DNA of 64,000 nt from Macrostomum lignano (taxonomy: Eukaryota), in the NCBI GenBank assembly GCA_002269645.1, contig NIVC01000240.1, positions 505,517-569,516 of the forward strand, read 5' to 3'. Positions 44,531-64,000 of the stretch are shown here, one piece after another. Within the stretch, counting starts at the first letter, position 1. Each line of letters begins with the position of its first letter. Below the pieces are notes generated by a model, which saw only the letters and a program-made list of their open reading frames with translations, was not told the origin of the DNA and ran no database searches. A program made the position numbers and the translations under genes.

Positions 44531-52679
<8,149 letters not shown>

Positions 52680-53520
52680 GCGTGCTGCGATTAGCTGTCG
52701 CCGAACTGTCTGTCAACAGTTCGAGCCGATTGTTACAAAGAAACTGTTGTTGAATAGGGTCAGTCTTCTGGCGCAACAATTATGTGCAAATGCGGCATGT
52801 GCCGAAGCGGAGGAGTAGAGCAGAGCTCAGATTTGAGTAGTTCGGGGGGGGCTTGCCGGCCTGCCTTTTCTTATAAATCAGATGGTGTTGGAGGTGGCCG
52901 GTCGTCGCAGAAAAATAGGGGGGGGGGGGGGCAGGGAGAGACCGGAGCGAAGGTCTGGGTGCAGATTGTGCTGGCAATGCTGTCAGAGTGTAGGCACAAA
53001 AAGCAGCACCCACCCCAACAAAGCTTGCAGCAGAATTCTCTGTTCTGTGCCCCGAGAAGCAACAGGCGTGTGCAGAGAGGCGAAGCCATTCTAATAAATG
53101 CTTTAACCTGTAGCCCTGCGCTCCGGCAGACTTTTACACTCGCGCCTCCACCACCGACCTACACTGCAGGCCCGTGGCTTGGATTTTGGCAAACTGAGAA
53201 TATATATAATGTGTGTGTGTGTGTTTTGTATGTGACACGTGTGCGTCCGGCAGGCCTGCGAATTGAGCAAAGCAGCTCTCTGAATCCGTATTGTATGAGA
53301 ATGCATAAATAAGCCATTAAGTCACAGCGGCTGCTGAAGGATCAAATAAAAATTTCTTAAAGTCTGTTTAAAGGTAGCTTTTGTAGTGTTTTGCGATCCA
53401 AACTCTGACTGTGGCGTACTGGCCGACTTTCCTATTCACCAGCCGGGGCACATGAAGTTCACACGAAGGGCGTTTTTACGAGCTAACTGCAAAAAATCTG
53501 TGTCAAAACTAGTGCAACCT

Positions 53521-55042: not shown

Positions 55043-56265
55043 TGTAGTTTAGGACCTAGTACTTAGGACCTAGTTTAGTCACTATAGGTAATTTTTAGCA
55101 GTAGGTATACCAAGCCATTTTTCCGCCCGTCGAACTACCAAAATGGGGGAAACCCCTGACCATTTTTTGCTGCGCCGGAACGGAGCAACGCAGGCACACG
55201 AAATTCAAGAACATGATGTGTTCCTTATTACCAGTCCTCAGCTGTAATCAAGGAACAATCACTTCTAGCTCTGTAGCTAGGCAACCCAGTAATCAAATGA
55301 AGGTATGTATTACCTTGAGTCCTGTCTCTGAGAGCTCTTCCGTGTTCTGTTATTCTCGGACTTCCTTTGAACCTCGAACTTCGTTAGACGTCTATGTTCG
55401 TAACCAGGTCCGCGTTCCTTTACGTCCACTGAAGTCGTTTCCGGCCGGTATCTGTAGTGCGGACCAATGGGAAGCTTCCAAATCAACAATGGGTACCCTG
55501 CGCCAATCTGCGGTTTAATATAAGCCTACTCCTTCTAGCAGTGCCTCCATGCACTCTAGGTATAGCTCCGGAAACCACTGATAGTCTTCTAAGATCTATC
55601 AGGGGCAGTCCTTCTGGAGACTGCAACCAGCAGAGTCTAAACAGACTCAGGAGTCTCAACAGACTCAAATAAACTCAAGTCTCAATAGACTTGAGCGAGA
55701 CGTCTCAACCAACAGGCGCAAATGAGTAAGGCTTACCGCAAGAACTCGTCCACGACGCGAGTTTCTTCAGGAAGGCTTCGCTAGAGCTTCCTCTTCGGAG
55801 CTTCTCTCTCTTGGAGATTTCTTGGCTCCGGGTCCGTTCCGGACCACTTGTATTTATAGGCGTTCAGACCTCTCTCGAGGTCGTACATCACTGTCTTCGC
55901 AAATGTCAAAGGGTCACGATTCGGTGGCTGTCAAGCATGACAGGGTAGAAAGTTGCGCAACTAGTCTACTGTAAAAGCGCATGATTGGTTACCGTAGCTG
56001 GTAGACTTTGATTGGTTCATCCGGGTGCAACCCGAGTGCAAACCAAATGATGACTTGAAGGTGGGGTTTGAATTGACAGTTGTTGGTCGCACGTGATTGG
56101 GTGATTTCTAAAATTAGCATGCTCGAGATTTCTCTCTTTCTATTGGTTAATTCGAATATATGTATGGTTCAGCGCATATCCTTATACATGCTCCTCAAAT
56201 TACTACTATTTAAGTAGTACGTTAACAATTTTAAATAACTTTTCTGGGAGATATAATACTCTACA
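55043..56265 (-). repeat. 3' LTR (~1.2 kb); right boundary firm, left boundary tentative
   Basis: On the - strand it begins TGTAG at 56265, 3 nt after the PPT. A CTACA end fits at 55043; alternatives are ~55272 and ~55453. It contains CCAAT boxes, a TATA box and ATTAAA. Confidence 0.7.
55851..56150 (-). promoter_or_regulatory. U3 promoter of the LTR: TATA box (CCTATAAATA, 55860-55851) plus four CCAAT boxes
   Basis: Plus-strand ATTGG near 55984, 56011, 56096 and 56143, upstream (on -) of TATAAATA. Confidence 0.7.
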
Positions 56266-56268
56266 AAA

Positions 56269-56280
56269 TCTCCCTTTTTT
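56269..56280 (-). other. Polypurine tract AAAAAAGGGAGA
   Basis: Purine run immediately 5' (on -) of the LTR TG. Confidence 0.85.
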
Positions 56281-56476
56281 ACGAAAAAACTCGTCCCGAG
56301 TTTGAATAAAAATATAAATTTACAGAAACGTCTTGAACTTGATATTGTATATATTTATATTGCCGGTATGTTACATTGTATACATTATCAGTAGTTAGTT
56401 TTGTCAGAGTTAATGGAAAGTTATCGTCTGATAAATGCAGATGACACTTGCCCCTGTGTTGATGCCGCTCGGACGA

Positions 56477-57115
56477 TCAGCCGAACCCGATTTTGAGCAC
56501 GGCGGATATCTGCTGCGCTGTTCGCGCAGCCAGACATGCCACCGCCCAGAATGTCGGCTGAAAGCGTGTGAAGCGCGGTTCCTCTGTGCGCTCGAGTATC
56601 ATCAGGTAGGCGTCAATACTCGTGAGTCCTGGGTGCTCGCGAGCCAGGCTCCTGGAAATTCCAAGGACGTGACGCCATGACTCCTGATGCCGGTGCGGCC
56701 ACGGCCACGACCGGACGGCGATGGACAATTGCTCGAAGGTCAAGCTGTCCGGCTCCGCCAACGTCAACTCTGGCACTGGTGTTATTGTCGCCAACATCAG
56801 CGCCGTCGAATGGTTGACAGGAGCTAGACATTCGGTGCAGATCTCTATATCTCTTGCACCGTACCTTCGGAGACAGCTTGCACAGACCCAATGTCGGTTG
56901 GAACACACCTGAACATGGGGCTGTTCGCCGCATACCACACAGGTAGCCCGCGCGCGACGGCAGACCGGGCAGGTAGATAGCATGGTAACATTGCCATCCA
57001 CCTGCTGCGCCATGGCGTCGCAGGAGACACACACGCGGTGTCCCCACTCACACGTCGGGATCATATAGTCCCGCGTCTCGAGACAGCAGGGGCATACGTC
57101 GTTGTTCTCGGCCAT
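56477..57115 (-). CDS. Accessory ORF B, 212 aa: two tandem RING-HC-like domains plus a helical C-terminal domain
   Basis: C-x2-C-x10-C-x3-H-x2-C-x2-C-x16-C-x2-C (CPVCR) and C-x2-C-x8-C-x3-H-x2-C-x2-C-x11-C-x2-C; intact ORF; CAG|ATG start. Confidence 0.85.
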   Translation of the reverse strand: MAENNDVCPCCLETRDYMIPTCEWGHRVCVSCDAMAQQVDGNVTMLSTCPVCRRARATCVVCGEQPHVQVCSNRHWVCASCLRRYGARDIEICTECLAPVNHSTALMLATITPVPELTLAEPDSLTFEQLSIAVRSWPWPHRHQESWRHVLGISRSLAREHPGLTSIDAYLMILERTEEPRFTRFQPTFWAVACLAARTAQQISAVLKIGFG

Positions 57116-57169
57116 CTGCGGGTTTTATGTAATCATCGTAATTAAAGCAGTCAGGGTGAAGTATACAGT

Positions 57170-57838
57170 CTACTGTGTATACCGTAAAAGCCATATGAAA
57201 TAACTACGTGACAAAATTAGTCTTTTTAGCGCGTGGCAATATATGTGCAATGTCCAGTGAAACGCGTGATGGGCATGCAAAAATTGTCGTAGATGTCGTT
57301 CTATATCCAGGGGTAACATATGACGCAATATTCCTTGATTGTTATGTGCGTACAGTAGTAATTCATTGCGTGACCGTCGAGCGAAACGAGGTACTGGCCA
57401 AAACTCTAGCAACTGTTCGATACGTATTGCGGGTAGTGTTCGAATATTATCAACATGTAAGCATCGATTGGCGTCGGGCTTGATGCGACACCACTTCTTG
57501 AAGGTGCTGTCCTTCGGCATACTGTTACACATAGGGCATCCTATGATGCCCCTACTAGCGGTTCGTTTCAAGCATTGCATGCAAATAAAATGACTTTGAT
57601 TACAGTATTGAAAGGTGCGCCACGAATAACAATAGGCGCACTGCGTCAGACTACTCCTACATAGGGGGCAGCTTTGCCAGTGTTGGATATGATGCGCGTC
57701 ACACAAGCAAGTGCCGCATATGCGATGATTATTTATACAAATGGTTGGTGGTTTTTTATGCAGGTCATCTTCCAAACAGACAGGGCATTCATAGAGTTGC
57801 CGTGGCTGGGTCGCCAGTCTAGACTGTGCATTGCCCAT
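57170..57838 (-). CDS. Accessory ORF A, 222 aa from MGNAQS: putative myristoylated double-RING protein
   Basis: First ATG in strong context (ACTATGG). C-x2-C-x12-C-x3-H-x2-C-x2-C-x12-C-x2-C (CPLCR) and C-x2-C-x8-C-x3-H-x2-C-x2-C-x11-C-x2-C. The ORF track extends it to a GTG at 57889. Confidence 0.85.
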   Translation of the reverse strand: MGNAQSRLATQPRQLYECPVCLEDDLHKKPPTICINNHRICGTCLCDAHHIQHWQSCPLCRSSLTQCAYCYSWRTFQYCNQSHFICMQCLKRTASRGIIGCPMCNSMPKDSTFKKWCRIKPDANRCLHVDNIRTLPAIRIEQLLEFWPVPRFARRSRNELLLYAHNNQGILRHMLPLDIERHLRQFLHAHHAFHWTLHIYCHALKRLILSRSYFIWLLRYTQ

Positions 57839-57984: not shown

Positions 57985-60900
57985 TTAACGAGGTCGCAGA
58001 TTATAGCCGTGCGGCTGGCTCTCGTTCGTTGTTTGAGTCTCCTCGTGCTTCGTTGCGATGTGGCGGTTTGTCGAACGCGTGCGGTCGGCATTGTCAAGTG
58101 ACGGTAGAAATGTCGCCGTGTCAGTGTTGATCCTTTTCAATCGATGAATGTGCACGTAGAATTGGTGCTGATGAGGATCTTGCACATTGGCCAGGCGTGC
58201 CGTTGTCGGTAACGTTAGTTGGACCACTCGATATGGTCCTTTGTACTTCTGTGCGTGTTTGTGCGTCTGTTGTGGCGGATAGTGCAGGTAGACGATGTCG
58301 CCGGCTGTCAGAGTTGTCGATCTCGTGTCGGTGCCGGTGGTCAGAGCCACCTGATTGTCGATGTTGTGCTTGGCTACTTTCCATGCGAGGTGTAGTTGCG
58401 TGACGAACTTTTGAATGGACGTCGGGACTTCCACATATTGCGATGGTAGTAGTTGCTGTGCCAATAGGTTTGGCGGCTGGAAGTCTCGCCCAAACATTAG
58501 AAAGAATGGCGTATTATCCGTTGATCGATGAATAGCGCTGTTGTAGGCCATTGTTACTGCTTGCAGATAGATGATCCAGTCGTCCGGTTGTTGATGCGCG
58601 AAGTGTGTAATCATCTCGTGTAGGTTGCGGTGAAACCTTTCAACCATGTTCGCCTTCGGATTGTAGGTCGATGTGTAGATCTGCGTGATGTTGAGGATCT
58701 TCACCACTTGCTGAAAGAGTTGAGACGTAAACTGCGATCCATTGTCCGATGTGAGGTTCTTTGGCGTACCGTACTTGCAGATGATGTCGTTGAAGAAACC
58801 CATTGCCACTGTCTGAGCTGTGATGTCCGGTATTGGTATGGCAATAGCAAACTTTGAGAAAATGTCCAAGGCTGTTAGGATGTAGGTGTAGGCTATGCCA
58901 TGGAGACAGCTCGGTGGCAGCGGTCCGGTGATGTCGATGCTGAGACAGTCCATAGTCGTTGACTTCGGTATCGATTGTAGCTGTGGTTTTTGTCGTCGTC
59001 CTGTCTTTGATGCTGCGCATGAGTGGCAGTTATTGCAATACTGCTTGATGTCGCCATGCATGCTTGGCCAAAAGTAGTATTGCTCCACTCTTGCAATGGT
59101 TTTGGCTGCCGACAGGTGTCCAGCGAGTGGGTTGTCGTGCAGCTCGTTGAGAATGGCCTGCCTAAACGAATATGGCATGTAGATTTTAGGTTTGTTGTCA
59201 CTCATCCAGTAGAGTCGTGTCTTGTTGATTGTTAAATGTTGTCGCTGCTTGCGCAGGAATTTTCGTTCCACGGGGCTGAGCTTGATGTCCTTGTCGTTGT
59301 TTTTAACTGCTATGTAGAAGTTGTCGTGTTCAGTCTCATCCACCAATTCCTTGATGTTAGGGATTGGATGAATGGCGTTGACTTCGTAGGTTCTTGACAG
59401 AGCGTCCGCCGCCTTGTTAGTAATTCCTGGTTTGTAGACGAGCTTGTAGTTGTAGTCCTGGATCTTGAGTGTCATCCTGATGAGTCGGTTGTTTGTTTGT
59501 CCTTTTGTAGTTACGACGTAGGTCAGCGGTGCGTGATCTGTGCGTACTATCGTCGGTATTGGAGAACCATAGATGTAGTAATGGAACTGTCGTAGGGCGA
59601 ACAAGACTCCTAGTAGTTCTCGTTCCGTAGCGGACCATTTTGTCTCATTCGGTTTAAGTGCTCGACTGACGTAGGCTATAGGTCGTTCCTTTTTGTCTCC
59701 AGTTTCCTGTAGTAGGACTGCTCCGAGTCCCGTTCCTGAGGCGTCTGTCTCGATGATGAAGGGTTTGTCGAAGTCCGGATGCTGTAGCAGTGCGTCTGAT
59801 GTCAGTTGTCGTTTGATTTCGTCAAAACTTTCTTGTTGCTTTTGTGTCCAATTATCCTGCTTCCATTTGTCGAACTTGAGCAGGTCGTACAGCGGCTTTG
59901 CTGTCTTCGCGAAGTTGGGTAAGAACTTTCGGAAGTATTGCGCTAGTCCAAGAAATGATTGGACCTTCGTTATGCTAGTTGGTGTAGGAAACTTCTTTAC
60001 TTTCTCCACATTGTCTGGGTCCGGTGAGATTCCTTTGGCTGTCACTTGGTGTCCTAGGTAACGTACGTTGTCTCGGAAGAATTTGCATTTCGTCGGTTGT
60101 AGCTTAAGACCTTGGCGTTGAATGAGCGCTAGGGCCTTCTCCGTAGCTTCATAGAGTCGTTGGAAGTCTTCTCCGTAGGCCAAGATGTCGTCGACATAGT
60201 GCAGCAGGTTTGTGCATCCTGCAAGCATGTATGCCGTTAGTCGGCTCATTGTTGCTGGGCTGTTGCTGAGTCCCATTGGCGACCGGTTGTACTCGTAGAC
60301 TTGTCCATTGTAGGTTTTGAAAGCCGTGTACTGTCGTGATTCTTTCTCGATTTCAATTTGCCAAAATCCATGACGTAGGTCGAACACCGTGAACAATTTT
60401 GCTGTGTTGAGCTTTGCTAGTAGCTCGGAGATCTTTGGTAGGCTTTGCTGATCCGTCGGTATGTACTTGTTCAGCAGTCTGAAGTCGCATACAAGTCGTC
60501 TTTCGTTAGTCTCCTTCTTTTGTACCAGTAGGCACGGTGAGGAATAGGCTGAAATTGCTTTGCTGATGATGCCGTGCTTTAGCATTTTATCGATAATTTC
60601 ATCAAAGTGTTGTTGCAGATGTTTGGCAATCGGGTACGGCTTGCATTGAATTGGTTCCGTGTGCGGTAGAAGCTTGATTTCTTGTTTAATGTCTTTAGCG
60701 CGTCCGATGTCGTAATCATGATGGCAGAAGGCTTCGTTGTACTTCCACAACAGTTGTCGAACTTTCTTCTTTTGCTGTTCCGTGATCGGGCTGTCGTCCA
60801 AGTTGATTTTCTTTTGAAATTCTTCTTCTGTTAGTCGTGGAGTCGTGTGCTCAATCAGCATAACTGATGCTTGAGTGTTGAGATGACCGATGCACATTCC

Positions 60901-62907
60901 TTGTCGTAGATGAACCATTTCCGCGTTCGGGTTGAAGATTTGTACTGGCAGCTGCTTATCTTTTGCAACCAGCACTAGTGCCGTAGGCATCATAATTTGG
61001 TGTTTAGCCGTGACTCTTCTGTTTGGGTCGAATATCATTGCTTCCTCCGTTGCGTTAGTTGCCTTTGCCTTTATCCAGCAGGCGCTCTCCGGTTGGATGA
61101 TGACATCTTGTTGCAATGTTACTTTTGGTAGTACTCGGATCTGGTTGATCAATGGTTGTTCTACCGAGTCGATCTTGAACGTTTGCTTATTGAAGTCGAA
61201 GGTCAATGGTAGTCGAAGCTGCTTGAACGTGTCGATGCCAACAATAACGTCCTGGTTTGGGAGTCTGTCGATGACGTACGTTGGAACTGTCAAATGTTTA
61301 TTAGCGATTCTTAAATCAATGTCGGCTTTTCCCAGAATGTTTAGCGAATGTCCTCCTGCTCCTGCAACTGCGATTGTTGCTGGCCGTAGAGCAAGTCGTA
61401 GCTTGTTGCACAGTTGTTTTGATATAACTGTAATGGAGCTGCCGGAGTCCAGTAACGCTCGACATGGTAGATTGTTGATTATAACTTGAGCCATTGCTTT
61501 GCCAATTTCGGCGTGTAGAGTACATACGTAGTTTTCTGGCCATTTTGGGTCTTGCTGTTCTGCTTGATAGTTAGGTGGTTGTATTCTTGGTGCCGTTGGT
61601 GTTGTCGGAATCGATGGATATAGCCGCGTTGCTAGTGTCGGTTGCCCTTGAACCTCACGATGTGCAGTTTCTGTTAGTTCTAAACTGTTGTCGCCTTCCG
61701 TTGTCGTTCTTTGCATTATGGCATTCACTGTCTTCTTAGCTCTTGGACAAGTTTGACTGAAGCACCGTACGATTGACGAAATGATGAAGATTGCCGTGGC
61801 AATCCACACAATGCAAGCACCGTAGAAGATGAATCCTTGATAGAGACTGCCTCTTCCATTGAGCAGCTCCCAGAAGCTGTTTGTCCAAAATGATTTGATG
61901 GCGCTGTCCATTGAAACAAGGACGGGAAATCTTCCTGTCCCGGTTCCTTTGTCCTTTCTTGTGAACAGCTGGTGAATCATCTTGCGTTGGGTGATGAACG
62001 CTTGCAAGAAGTCGTTGATCGTCCATCCTGGTGTTATTTCGTCAAGTTGGATATCGGCGAATGGCGTATACTTTGTTCTGTTGAATCGGATTTTCAAATC
62101 CTCCATGTCGTAGTTTTCGTCGACGATTACTTCCGGTTCTGTGATGTTTGCTGTCGTTCCAGTTGTTTTGATGACGTGTAGTGCATTGTCCAGTTGATAG
62201 TAGTTCGCTGCCGTGGTGCAAGGTCTCGGTATTGCGGTGCCAACGATGATGTTGTGTACCGTGTCCAAGAATCCCTGAATTCGTTTTCCTTCGTAGAACG
62301 CTTCAATCCTTGGCTTGTCGTAGCAGGTTGTTGACGTGTTTGACGGCAAGATGTTGAAGTGCTGTATCGGCGTGCACTTGTATATCAACAGATGCTCGTA
62401 TATTGGAACTGCCAAAACGTTCGTCATTCCGGTGATTTTACGAAAAGTCATCGTAGGGTTGACATAGTAGTTTTGTCTGGCATAATTTAAGTTGATTGCG
62501 TGCATTTTGCAAGTTAGCTGGACCAGTGTTCGATGCAAGTGGTTTAACTGGTTGTGTAGATTGTGATCCAAAGCCGTTATCTTTGCTGACAGTAGTCGGT
62601 TTGACACTAGTTTGGGACGTTCGATGTCTCGTCGTCGTCTGTTCTGTTGTTCCTGCTGTTGATACGTTCCGTTGATGATCGCCAGAAAGGTTTGTTTGTC
62701 GTCTTCTTTTACGTAGACTGGTATCTCTTGTTCCGAGATGAATAGTGTCTTGTCTGTATCCTTGCATTTCAGTTTTTGCTCGACTGGTTTCTTTTGAAAC
62801 GTCAGTGCCAAGTCTCCTGACTTTGCCAAAAACGTATTTGACAGTAGACCTCCTTCAACTGTGTGATACTTTTGAAGCTTGCAGTCAATTTCCGGCTCAA
62901 CTTCCAC
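57985..62907 (-). CDS. 1640-aa open frame: C-terminal part of an env-like glycoprotein, TM helix, aspartic protease, RT, RNase H and integrase
   Basis: RRRR furin site (62629-40); NPT...C motif; TM at ~61836-61768; LDSGS (61441-49); YVDD (60187-98); TDASGTGLGAVL; H-x6-H...C-x2-C zinc finger; D-D-E (SIDITG, SDNG, VERFHR); GPY; terminal YNLRPR. Confidence 0.95.
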   Translation of the reverse strand: MEVEPEIDCKLQKYHTVEGGLLSNTFLAKSGDLALTFQKKPVEQKLKCKDTDKTLFISEQEIPVYVKEDDKQTFLAIINGTYQQQEQQNRRRRDIERPKLVSNRLLSAKITALDHNLHNQLNHLHRTLVQLTCKMHAINLNYARQNYYVNPTMTFRKITGMTNVLAVPIYEHLLIYKCTPIQHFNILPSNTSTTCYDKPRIEAFYEGKRIQGFLDTVHNIIVGTAIPRPCTTAANYYQLDNALHVIKTTGTTANITEPEVIVDENYDMEDLKIRFNRTKYTPFADIQLDEITPGWTINDFLQAFITQRKMIHQLFTRKDKGTGTGRFPVLVSMDSAIKSFWTNSFWELLNGRGSLYQGFIFYGACIVWIATAIFIISSIVRCFSQTCPRAKKTVNAIMQRTTTEGDNSLELTETAHREVQGQPTLATRLYPSIPTTPTAPRIQPPNYQAEQQDPKWPENYVCTLHAEIGKAMAQVIINNLPCRALLDSGSSITVISKQLCNKLRLALRPATIAVAGAGGHSLNILGKADIDLRIANKHLTVPTYVIDRLPNQDVIVGIDTFKQLRLPLTFDFNKQTFKIDSVEQPLINQIRVLPKVTLQQDVIIQPESACWIKAKATNATEEAMIFDPNRRVTAKHQIMMPTALVLVAKDKQLPVQIFNPNAEMVHLRQGMCIGHLNTQASVMLIEHTTPRLTEEEFQKKINLDDSPITEQQKKKVRQLLWKYNEAFCHHDYDIGRAKDIKQEIKLLPHTEPIQCKPYPIAKHLQQHFDEIIDKMLKHGIISKAISAYSSPCLLVQKKETNERRLVCDFRLLNKYIPTDQQSLPKISELLAKLNTAKLFTVFDLRHGFWQIEIEKESRQYTAFKTYNGQVYEYNRSPMGLSNSPATMSRLTAYMLAGCTNLLHYVDDILAYGEDFQRLYEATEKALALIQRQGLKLQPTKCKFFRDNVRYLGHQVTAKGISPDPDNVEKVKKFPTPTSITKVQSFLGLAQYFRKFLPNFAKTAKPLYDLLKFDKWKQDNWTQKQQESFDEIKRQLTSDALLQHPDFDKPFIIETDASGTGLGAVLLQETGDKKERPIAYVSRALKPNETKWSATERELLGVLFALRQFHYYIYGSPIPTIVRTDHAPLTYVVTTKGQTNNRLIRMTLKIQDYNYKLVYKPGITNKAADALSRTYEVNAIHPIPNIKELVDETEHDNFYIAVKNNDKDIKLSPVERKFLRKQRQHLTINKTRLYWMSDNKPKIYMPYSFRQAILNELHDNPLAGHLSAAKTIARVEQYYFWPSMHGDIKQYCNNCHSCAASKTGRRQKPQLQSIPKSTTMDCLSIDITGPLPPSCLHGIAYTYILTALDIFSKFAIAIPIPDITAQTVAMGFFNDIICKYGTPKNLTSDNGSQFTSQLFQQVVKILNITQIYTSTYNPKANMVERFHRNLHEMITHFAHQQPDDWIIYLQAVTMAYNSAIHRSTDNTPFFLMFGRDFQPPNLLAQQLLPSQYVEVPTSIQKFVTQLHLAWKVAKHNIDNQVALTTGTDTRSTTLTAGDIVYLHYPPQQTHKHAQKYKGPYRVVQLTLPTTARLANVQDPHQHQFYVHIHRLKRINTDTATFLPSLDNADRTRSTNRHIATKHEETQTTNESQPHGYNLRPR

Positions 62908-63745
62908 GCGAAGAAGTATTGTCGTGACTTAGATGGTTCTTCATATCGTGAGTCGCCTCTGCGTATAATTTGCCATCGATAGTCTTGATGATATGTTGGA
63001 CTCAACGGTAAGCTGTATAGTTCCTCATTCCGCAGTATCGGCGTTGGACACCATCCTTTGCTGTATCGGCAGTCGCTTAATTGCAGTTGTAGCGACTCCA
63101 TTTTTTCAAAAGGATTGTGGTAGAATGGAATATTCCTGATTAGGTAACTGTTTCGTGTCATGTAGTTAGTCCATGCTTCCGAAAAGTGTACATATCGTCC
63201 GTTTGCTGAGTTCTTCGTTCGGTAAAGTTGTGCCTCCCCCACTTTCTCATCCGGTTCTAGCTGACCATCCTTTGAGAACAGTGTTTGGTTCCATTGTAGA
63301 CATTCAGCGTGCGACACATGTAGTTCGTGTTGCCAAAATCGAATTCTGTTCCACTGTCCTCGCCAAACTTTTTCCACTAGGTGCTTGTCTCTGAAGCACA
63401 CTATTCCGTGTTGTCGATGCTTTTGATGTTAGCCTTGTAGAGGTCGAGTGTAATCTTCTTTGGCTTCGTTTGGTTTGTCTTGAAGTAGCTGCATTTGATG
63501 TCGGTTGGTATCTTGTAGATCATCGGTTGGATATGCGCATCCGTTGGACATATCATTGGTTTCTCCATTGCTGTTGCTTTGGTGACTACTGCCGTCAGTA
63601 GTATTATGATGATCCAGAATATCCAGAATCGCCATTTTCTGAACGTTGCCGTTGTCTTTGCTGGCATTGGCTGCGGCTGCCATTCGTTATCTTCTGCGTC
63701 CGCATCGTATTCTTCCTCTTGTTCCATTGGCGTTTCCGAGCGCAA
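62908..63745 (-). pseudogene. N-terminal half of the env-like glycoprotein (signal sequence and Cys-rich ectodomain), broken by frameshifts
   Basis: FRKWRFWIFWIIIILLTAVVTKATA|MEKPMICP signal-like stretch, ICP...KC, VCF and CRYSKGWCP; frame changes at ~63401 and ~63030-62910. Confidence 0.75.
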
Positions 63746-64000
63746 GGCATCCGATTCGTTCCGCTGCTTGTCGTCTTCATCATTTTCTTCCTTGCTTTCT
63801 TCGATGTTGTAGTTGTGTCACTCCATTGTCGCGGTACCTCACTTCGGCCTTGTAGTCGACGTTTGAATGTAGGCTTCACCATTTCGTTTATATCGGATCT
63901 CGTAGCATTGATCGCTGTCGGAGCTTAGATTTCTTTCTTCCATTCCTTTGTGCCTTCCGTCTTCATGTGCTTTGTCGACGCTTGGTTGTCATCAGCGTCT

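Follow-up and report, generated by a model that had tools for sequence, protein, structure and literature searches.

The window analysed here, 64,000 nucleotides from Macrostomum lignano (contig NIVC01000240.1, positions 505,517 to 569,516), carries at its end the 3′ portion of a Ty3/gypsy errantivirus of recent spread, a long terminal repeat (LTR) retroelement whose features all lie on the minus strand (Table 1). One frame of 1,647 aa (62,928-57,985) encodes the C-terminal half of an envelope protein (Env), a transmembrane helix (TM2), a protease (PR), a reverse transcriptase (RT), an RNase H (RH) and an integrase (IN), with two RING-type open reading frames (ORFs; 56,477-57,838) between the integrase and the polypurine tract (PPT). 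The Env ectodomain is a class III fusogen of the herpesvirus glycoprotein B (gB) type, and we put at about two in three the probability that uninterrupted copies of the element express Gag, this fusogen and PR-RT-RH-IN from one frame, as a single polyprotein that crosses the endoplasmic reticulum (ER) membrane twice.

Results

The window copy

In the window copy the first half of Env and its signal-like stretch lie in two other frames, so that the ectodomain extends over three frames in total. Over 6,015 bases the window departs from the nearest uninterrupted copy by 7 substitutions and six one-base losses; two of these losses fall within env (near 63,420 and 62,900), the other four lying ahead of the ectodomain. 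Given the many one-base losses, the few substitutions and the position at a contig end, these breaks are likely long-read assembly errors. The gag of this copy is hidden because the window stops at the end of its own contig; in other copies gag lies upstream, in the same frame as Env. The motifs picked out in an initial annotation of the window (a signal-like stretch, CRYSKGWCP, RRRR, a heptad-like helix, NPT and a transmembrane helix) were all located where it had placed them, and its estimate of ~105 aa without a stop from the transmembrane helix to the protease motif LDSGS corresponds to exactly 105 stop-free codons.

The envelope ectodomain

A search of the PDB with the single ectodomain sequence gave nothing useful (best E 0.25), gB being reached by profiles only. 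A six-sequence profile matched Epstein-Barr virus gB (E 9e-14) collinearly over the central helix, the NPT motif and the subsequent cysteines, whilst all 49 PDB matches of a 34-sequence profile were herpesvirus gB, with a gammaherpesvirus gB the best (E 1.8e-20). PF24664 was found in 6/6 members, the sequence of the window's own family scoring under the curated threshold. PF24664 was also the first ESM Atlas match (0.90); its recognition score was low, and it was treated as a lead only.

A structure model built from a natural unbroken copy of the ectodomain (pLDDT 71, pTM 0.46) shows the gB-like domain folds in collinear order, with a relative domain orientation that is unreliable at this pTM. 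Foldseek matched the model to herpesvirus gB (E 9e-20) and to nyamivirus, chu-like and rhabdo-like G (E 2e-23), and VIA aligned 393 residues with herpes simplex virus (HSV) gB at Z 11.3 (rmsd 9.4) and 165 residues with domain IV of pseudorabies virus gB at Z 11.1 (rmsd 3.5). The class III identity proposed in the initial annotation is borne out, with profile searches and the fold comparison it had suggested both pointing to gB/G fusogens. Identity to herpesvirus gB and nyami-, chu- and rhabdovirus G is ~10-17%, despite this likeness (Foldseek E 1e-18 to 1e-23), and Env is here embedded in a polyprotein rather than encoded by a free-standing gene.

Five families of the element, that of the window and four described below, all keep 12 cysteines and the furin site. 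The dN/dS of env is 0.04-0.12, similar to that of pol, with strong purifying selection on both Env halves. The model presents an aromatic hairpin tip and a second, low-confidence loop as candidate fusion loops, the sequence of this region differing strongly between families. One database homologue (P0004) has an ectodomain ~190 aa longer ahead of the furin site, and a copy of a related family (L113, G000:C262:219000-225800, from the family at 65% Env identity) carries ~3.5 kb of other DNA within env.

A single Gag-Env-Pol frame across copies and families

Natural copies encode, without a stop, Gag with a CCHC knuckle, an acidic linker, a hydrophobic helix (H1), the ectodomain, TM2, a tail, PR, RT, RH and IN. 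Six of the 27 copies that hold every landmark are fully open through all 14, giving chains of 2,480-2,538 aa. The frame of TM2 continues into PR in 29/39 copies, a count that includes the window copy and leaves out L056, which has no break between the two; the remaining ten are short by 1-2 bases. A stop separating the transmembrane region from the protease, which the initial annotation had proposed looking for in other copies, is found in none of the 29 that retain the 354-nt spacing, and the in-frame Env-protease fusion it described proves to be the family norm. Other long intervals are comparably broken (CCHC-H1 open in 24/37 copies, PR-RT in 21/29). We weighed a programmed frameshift at TM2-PR but do not favour it, as the breaks lie at five different places, mostly in base runs, with an insertion flank common to two copies.

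The layout is common to four further families in the genome. One family, at 65% Env identity, keeps this arrangement in single frames of 2,502-2,503 aa. The other three, at 23-29% identity, hold TM2 and PR in a common frame at 8/10 loci, with one locus broken there and one too fragmented to score. The linker between TM2 and PR is open in all five families (~103-124 aa), with a within-family dN/dS of 0-0.25 indicating purifying selection. Derivatives lacking env were looked for and none was found, env lying upstream at 75/75 protease places (≥60% identity); pairs were matched by eye, and three places that had first given no env match were checked and all carry env. Separately, four contigs (G000:C247, C270, C1672 and C4280) hold another family, in which a distantly related protease lies within open frames of 2,859-2,866 aa.

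Amongst 50 database homologues, 20 reach at least 1,000 aa, and in 10 of these a single chain has Env preceding PR and/or RT. A database protein without a name joins Gag, H1 and Env. Among the matches, the closest protein that bears a name, the UniRef entry A0A0M4HFM6 (P0002) from M. lignano, 97% identical over the common Env part, starts within Env and carries its C-terminal half, TM, tail, PR, RT, RH and IN in one chain, under the name 'Retrovirus-related polyprotein', which makes no reference to an envelope. The sole Pao-type homologue among the matches (P0045) has Env after integrase. Three database Gag-Env-Pol polyproteins (P0033, P0044 and P0014) have two protease-like domains.

Element family and age

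A DNA search for copies returned 40/40 scored candidates at 93-100% identity, a lower bound on the copy number, and a 5′ LTR followed by a primer binding site (PBS) is present at 37/40 loci. The LTR pairs within seven copies are 99.7-100% identical and perfect 4-bp target site duplications (TSDs) flank 6/7, which together indicate a young family. Pol is closest to yeast Ty3 in a search without a tree (E 2e-92 to Ty3 Gag-Pol, against 4e-48 or weaker for the class that follows), and its order PR-RT-RH-IN with an H2C2 integrase is that of Ty3/gypsy (Metaviridae), as are the TG...CA LTRs, PBS, PPT and short TSD. The capsid part of Gag matches weakly only (DUF1759, E 0.003). With gag, a gB-type env and a Ty3/gypsy pol, present in many copies and enclosed by LTRs, the window element is a GAG-ENV-POL errantivirus. 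No match to the Pao A17 peptidase (PF05380) was found in the element, and Retroviridae membership was rejected, RT and envelope profile searches having revealed neither a retroviral-type RT nor a class I env 3′ of pol.

Copies lie head to tail ~10 kb apart on G000:C669 (L014-L016), and also on C2447, C1130 and C2121; on G000:C669 one LTR directly precedes the leader of the next copy and is common to both. The dS varies tenfold along the frame (L033 against L035, L048 and L078), being for L048 0.06 in the C-terminal half of Env and 0.92 in Gag, which points to recombination between subfamilies. The two RING-type ORFs are ~67-73% identical at the DNA level and diverge faster than env and pol. 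The first is 222 aa in the window and in L048 and is shortened to 70 aa in L020, L028, L030 and L078; being only 70 aa in several young copies, it is seemingly dispensable for recent spread. In a distant family the RING pair is replaced by a 250-aa 3′ ORF with an N-terminal hydrophobic helix (L103:9249-9998, plus strand).

Predicted topology and tail motifs

A 19-residue hydropathy scan over the 2,480-aa chain reveals only two hydrophobic regions, H1 and TM2, which flank the ectodomain. H1 is preceded by basic residues and scores as a transmembrane helix (hydropathy 2.1-2.5). Signal peptidase prefers small residues at -3/-1, and a small-x-small site of this kind follows H1 in P0003 and in four of the five families. 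From H1, TM2 and the charges on either side of them, the predicted arrangement is a cytosolic Gag, a lumenal ectodomain and a cytosolic Pol. A signal-peptidase cut after H1 would leave Gag tail-anchored and Pol carried on Env, whereas without the cut all three would stay linked. The initial annotation's proposal that Pol is tethered through Env on the cytosolic face fits these segments and charges; its further point, that the tether does not run through Gag, would hold only if H1 is cut, since Gag is part of the same polyprotein.

The tail contains YPSI, PTAP and PPNY within 18 residues, a combination of all three motif classes that arose in 0/20,000 shuffles of the tail. YPxI-like, PTAP and PPxY motifs are the three classes of retroviral late domain. 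Four of the five families keep the YPxI motif, and three keep P[TS]AP.

Table 1. Coordinates of the element in the window, listed from its upstream end.
Feature	Position	Strand	Remark
End of acidic linker from Gag (past the contig end) to Env; four one-base breaks at 63,800-63,980	63,641-64,000	-	
H1: hydrophobic helix preceded by basic residues, with an A-x-A site; predicted to serve as internal signal peptide and membrane anchor of Gag	63,566-63,640	-	Putative cleavage
gB-type class III fusogen ectodomain, ~580 aa, 12 cysteines common to five families	61,837-63,568	-	
Aromatic hairpin tip, candidate fusion loop 1	63,351-63,371	-	Strand-turn-strand in model; putative role
Aromatic loop, candidate fusion loop 2	63,171-63,194	-	Low-confidence loop in model; putative role
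CRYSKGWCP	63,045-63,071	-	
Furin-type site RRRR, ahead of central helix	62,626-62,640	-	R-x-K/R-R in all five families
Central helix, NPT motif and subsequent strands (gB domain III/IV core)	62,374-62,595	-	
Heptad helix	62,509-62,595	-	
NPTMTF	62,443-62,460	-	
LIYKC	62,374-62,388	-	
TM2, then Cys and basic residues	61,768-61,836	-	Predicted cytosolic side by positive-inside rule
Open linker of 105 aa, TM2 to protease active-site motif	61,453-61,767	-	Predicted cytosolic tail and PR start
Late-domain-like cluster YPSI, PTAP, PPNY	61,567-61,623	-	Putative function
Aspartic protease	61,204-61,494	-	LDSGS at 61,438-61,452
Reverse transcriptase core (YVDD)	60,043-60,522	-	
RNase H	59,452-59,850	-	
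Integrase (H2C2, core, GPY motif) to polyprotein stop	57,985-59,175	-	
Accessory ORF 1, 222 aa, MG start (myristoylation-like), RING-type cysteine pattern	57,170-57,838	-	Sina_RING E 0.009, below cut-off
Accessory ORF 2, 212 aa, RING-type cysteine pattern	56,477-57,115	-	Sina_RING E 0.001, below cut-off
Polypurine tract	56,268-56,282	-	
3′ LTR, 1,054 bp, TG...CA	55,214-56,267	-	100% identical to another copy's 5′ LTR

Neighbouring sequence

The 3′ LTR lies 2.5 kb upstream of a host exon on the same strand (50,646-52,712, minus), which encodes EF-hands, a coiled coil and the beginning of a GTPase of Rab type and which we take to belong to a RASEF/EFCAB4-like gene. A tandem repeat array with a unit of ~38-39 bases (~49,600-50,650) yields repetitive open frames.

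Discussion

A single Gag-Env-Pol chain fixes the ratio of the three parts at 1:1:1, and its threading and cutting would be unlike those of any studied retrovirus. Gag would stay in the cytosol while H1 serves as an internal signal, and cleavage after H1 by signal peptidase would leave Gag anchored by its C-terminus; TM2 would then stop transfer, giving a type I Env-Pol with a cytosolic Pol and one Pol per Env. Furin would cleave the ectodomain and Env would trimerise, the YPxI, PTAP and PPxY motifs of the tail would recruit ESCRT/NEDD4 factors for budding, and clustering of Env would dimerise PR, resulting in release of capsid, nucleocapsid, RT and IN. It is possible, if doubtful, that assembly is in this way turned inside out, signal peptidase splitting the polyprotein into a tail-anchored Gag and a membrane-bound Env-Pol, such that the Env tail, rather than Gag, delivers the enzymes and calls ESCRT, trimer clustering activates PR, and a ubiquitin signal perhaps comes from the putatively myristoylated RING protein that the element itself encodes.

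The stoichiometry problem posed by such a chain would be removed if the continuous frame gave the Env-Pol fusion only as a minor product, with Pol or Gag-Pol made mostly from a spliced RNA that skips env; foamy viruses are established to make their pol RNA by splicing (available text of PMC7828637). We consider this unlikely, as a spliced RNA ending in LTRs could itself retrotranspose, yet every one of the 75 protease places retains env, and the linker between TM2 and PR is open and under purifying selection. Alternatively, H1 may be an uncleaved signal-anchor, with Gag-Env-Pol spanning the membrane twice until the viral protease cuts it and Pol tied to Gag via Env; this would suit the transmembrane-like hydropathy of H1, the lack of a clean signal-peptidase site in the L073 family, and the description in the available text of PMC13524379 of a transmembrane domain on each side of the ectodomain in some gB-type ENVs. 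The small -3/-1 residues that directly follow H1 in most families, and a gB alignment that starts at the first cysteine of the ectodomain, where mature gB begins, make an uncleaved H1 distinctly unlikely. That Env is instead a retained scaffold, placing assembly of a purely intracellular element on internal membranes without any fusion, might be suggested by the strong difference in fusion-loop sequence between families. We regard this as very improbable in view of the purifying selection on both Env halves, the 12 conserved cysteines, the furin site in all five families and the aromatic loop tips in the window's family.

Several observations weigh against a single polyprotein that carries Pol on Env. 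The breaks that put TM2 and PR out of frame in 10/39 copies fall at two recurring places in 9/10, and may mark a real sub-lineage. Runs of 3-4 equal bases contain eight of these nine, and a common insertion flank is seen in two copies, a pattern which fits systematic miscalling; across 12 close copies, however, 39% of one-base losses lie outside runs, against a background of 57%, so that the bias to runs is modest. The pTM of the ectodomain model is low and its whole-chain TM-scores are ~0.3, values attributable to the uncertain domain arrangement of a monomer model, and the missing cleavage motif of the L073 family also tells against a cut after H1. Late-domain-like motifs are absent in family L100, PTAP is lost in L074, a tail PPxY occurs in the window's family only, and such motifs directly follow TM2 in only 4/18 database homologues. 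The YPxI pattern is moreover a relaxed form of the late-domain motif, and a 1:1 ratio of Gag to Pol is unusual for retroelements.

The novelty that the initial annotation implied for an env placed before pol finds no support. Chary and Hayashi (eLife 2026; PMC13524379, available text) describe errantiviruses of Nematoda, Bryozoa and Platyhelminthes with only a gB-type ENV and the order GAG-ENV-POL, crediting Sacco et al. (2022, J Gen Virol) for the nematode case. These have the gene order, the ectodomain between two hydrophobic segments and the Ty3/gypsy Pol seen here. The layout is already known, and the family is very likely already catalogued, so that the finding adds little as a discovery. 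Sacco and colleagues reportedly describe a single gag-env-pol frame.

Supplementary file 1 of PMC13524379 lists Platyhelminthes_Rhabditophora_Mlig_errantivirus_2, of ENV_HSV type with 16 copies, which we match to our family by features: an identical 12-nt PBS and an LTR-to-LTR length of 9,727, compared with 9,728-9,731 in L040 and L053. Its sequence was absent from the 30 places, out of 125 for 'Mlig' in supplementary file 3, that were inspected. The window's subfamily has ~90% coding-region identity to the L053 type and a diverged 1,054-bp LTR, 78% identical to those of neighbouring subfamilies. The main text of PMC13524379 contains no reference to a polyprotein, single ORF, fusion of the frames, late domain, ESCRT, budding, splicing or RING, matters which its figures, its repository or Sacco et al. 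may cover. In the literature searched, the late-domain cluster of the tail and the two 3′ RING ORFs were found undescribed for GAG-ENV-POL errantiviruses, and there was no relevant report of late domains in gypsy envelope tails or of a single ORF with an envelope between gag and pol; the available text of PMC12801592 does not contain env, envelope or glycoprotein as whole words.

Other systems resemble the element in part. The Anakin elements (bioRxiv 2020.02.15.950899, available text) combine a class III (chuvirus) glycoprotein with an LTR element, of BEL/Pao rather than Ty3/gypsy type. In foamy viruses, Pol enters particles without direct Gag-Pol fusion, and a stable type II membrane leader precedes the ectodomain; their Pol is made from a spliced RNA and their Env is a separate retroviral gene, and the comparison is one of analogy only (PMC7828637, available text).

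The remaining interest of the element lies in its topology and processing, the late-domain cluster in its envelope tail, and the RING cassette. If the Env tail packages Pol and drives budding, this would be a distinct solution to the assembly of retro-particles, and as the family is young and present in many copies, its RNAs and proteins should be observable in the natural host.

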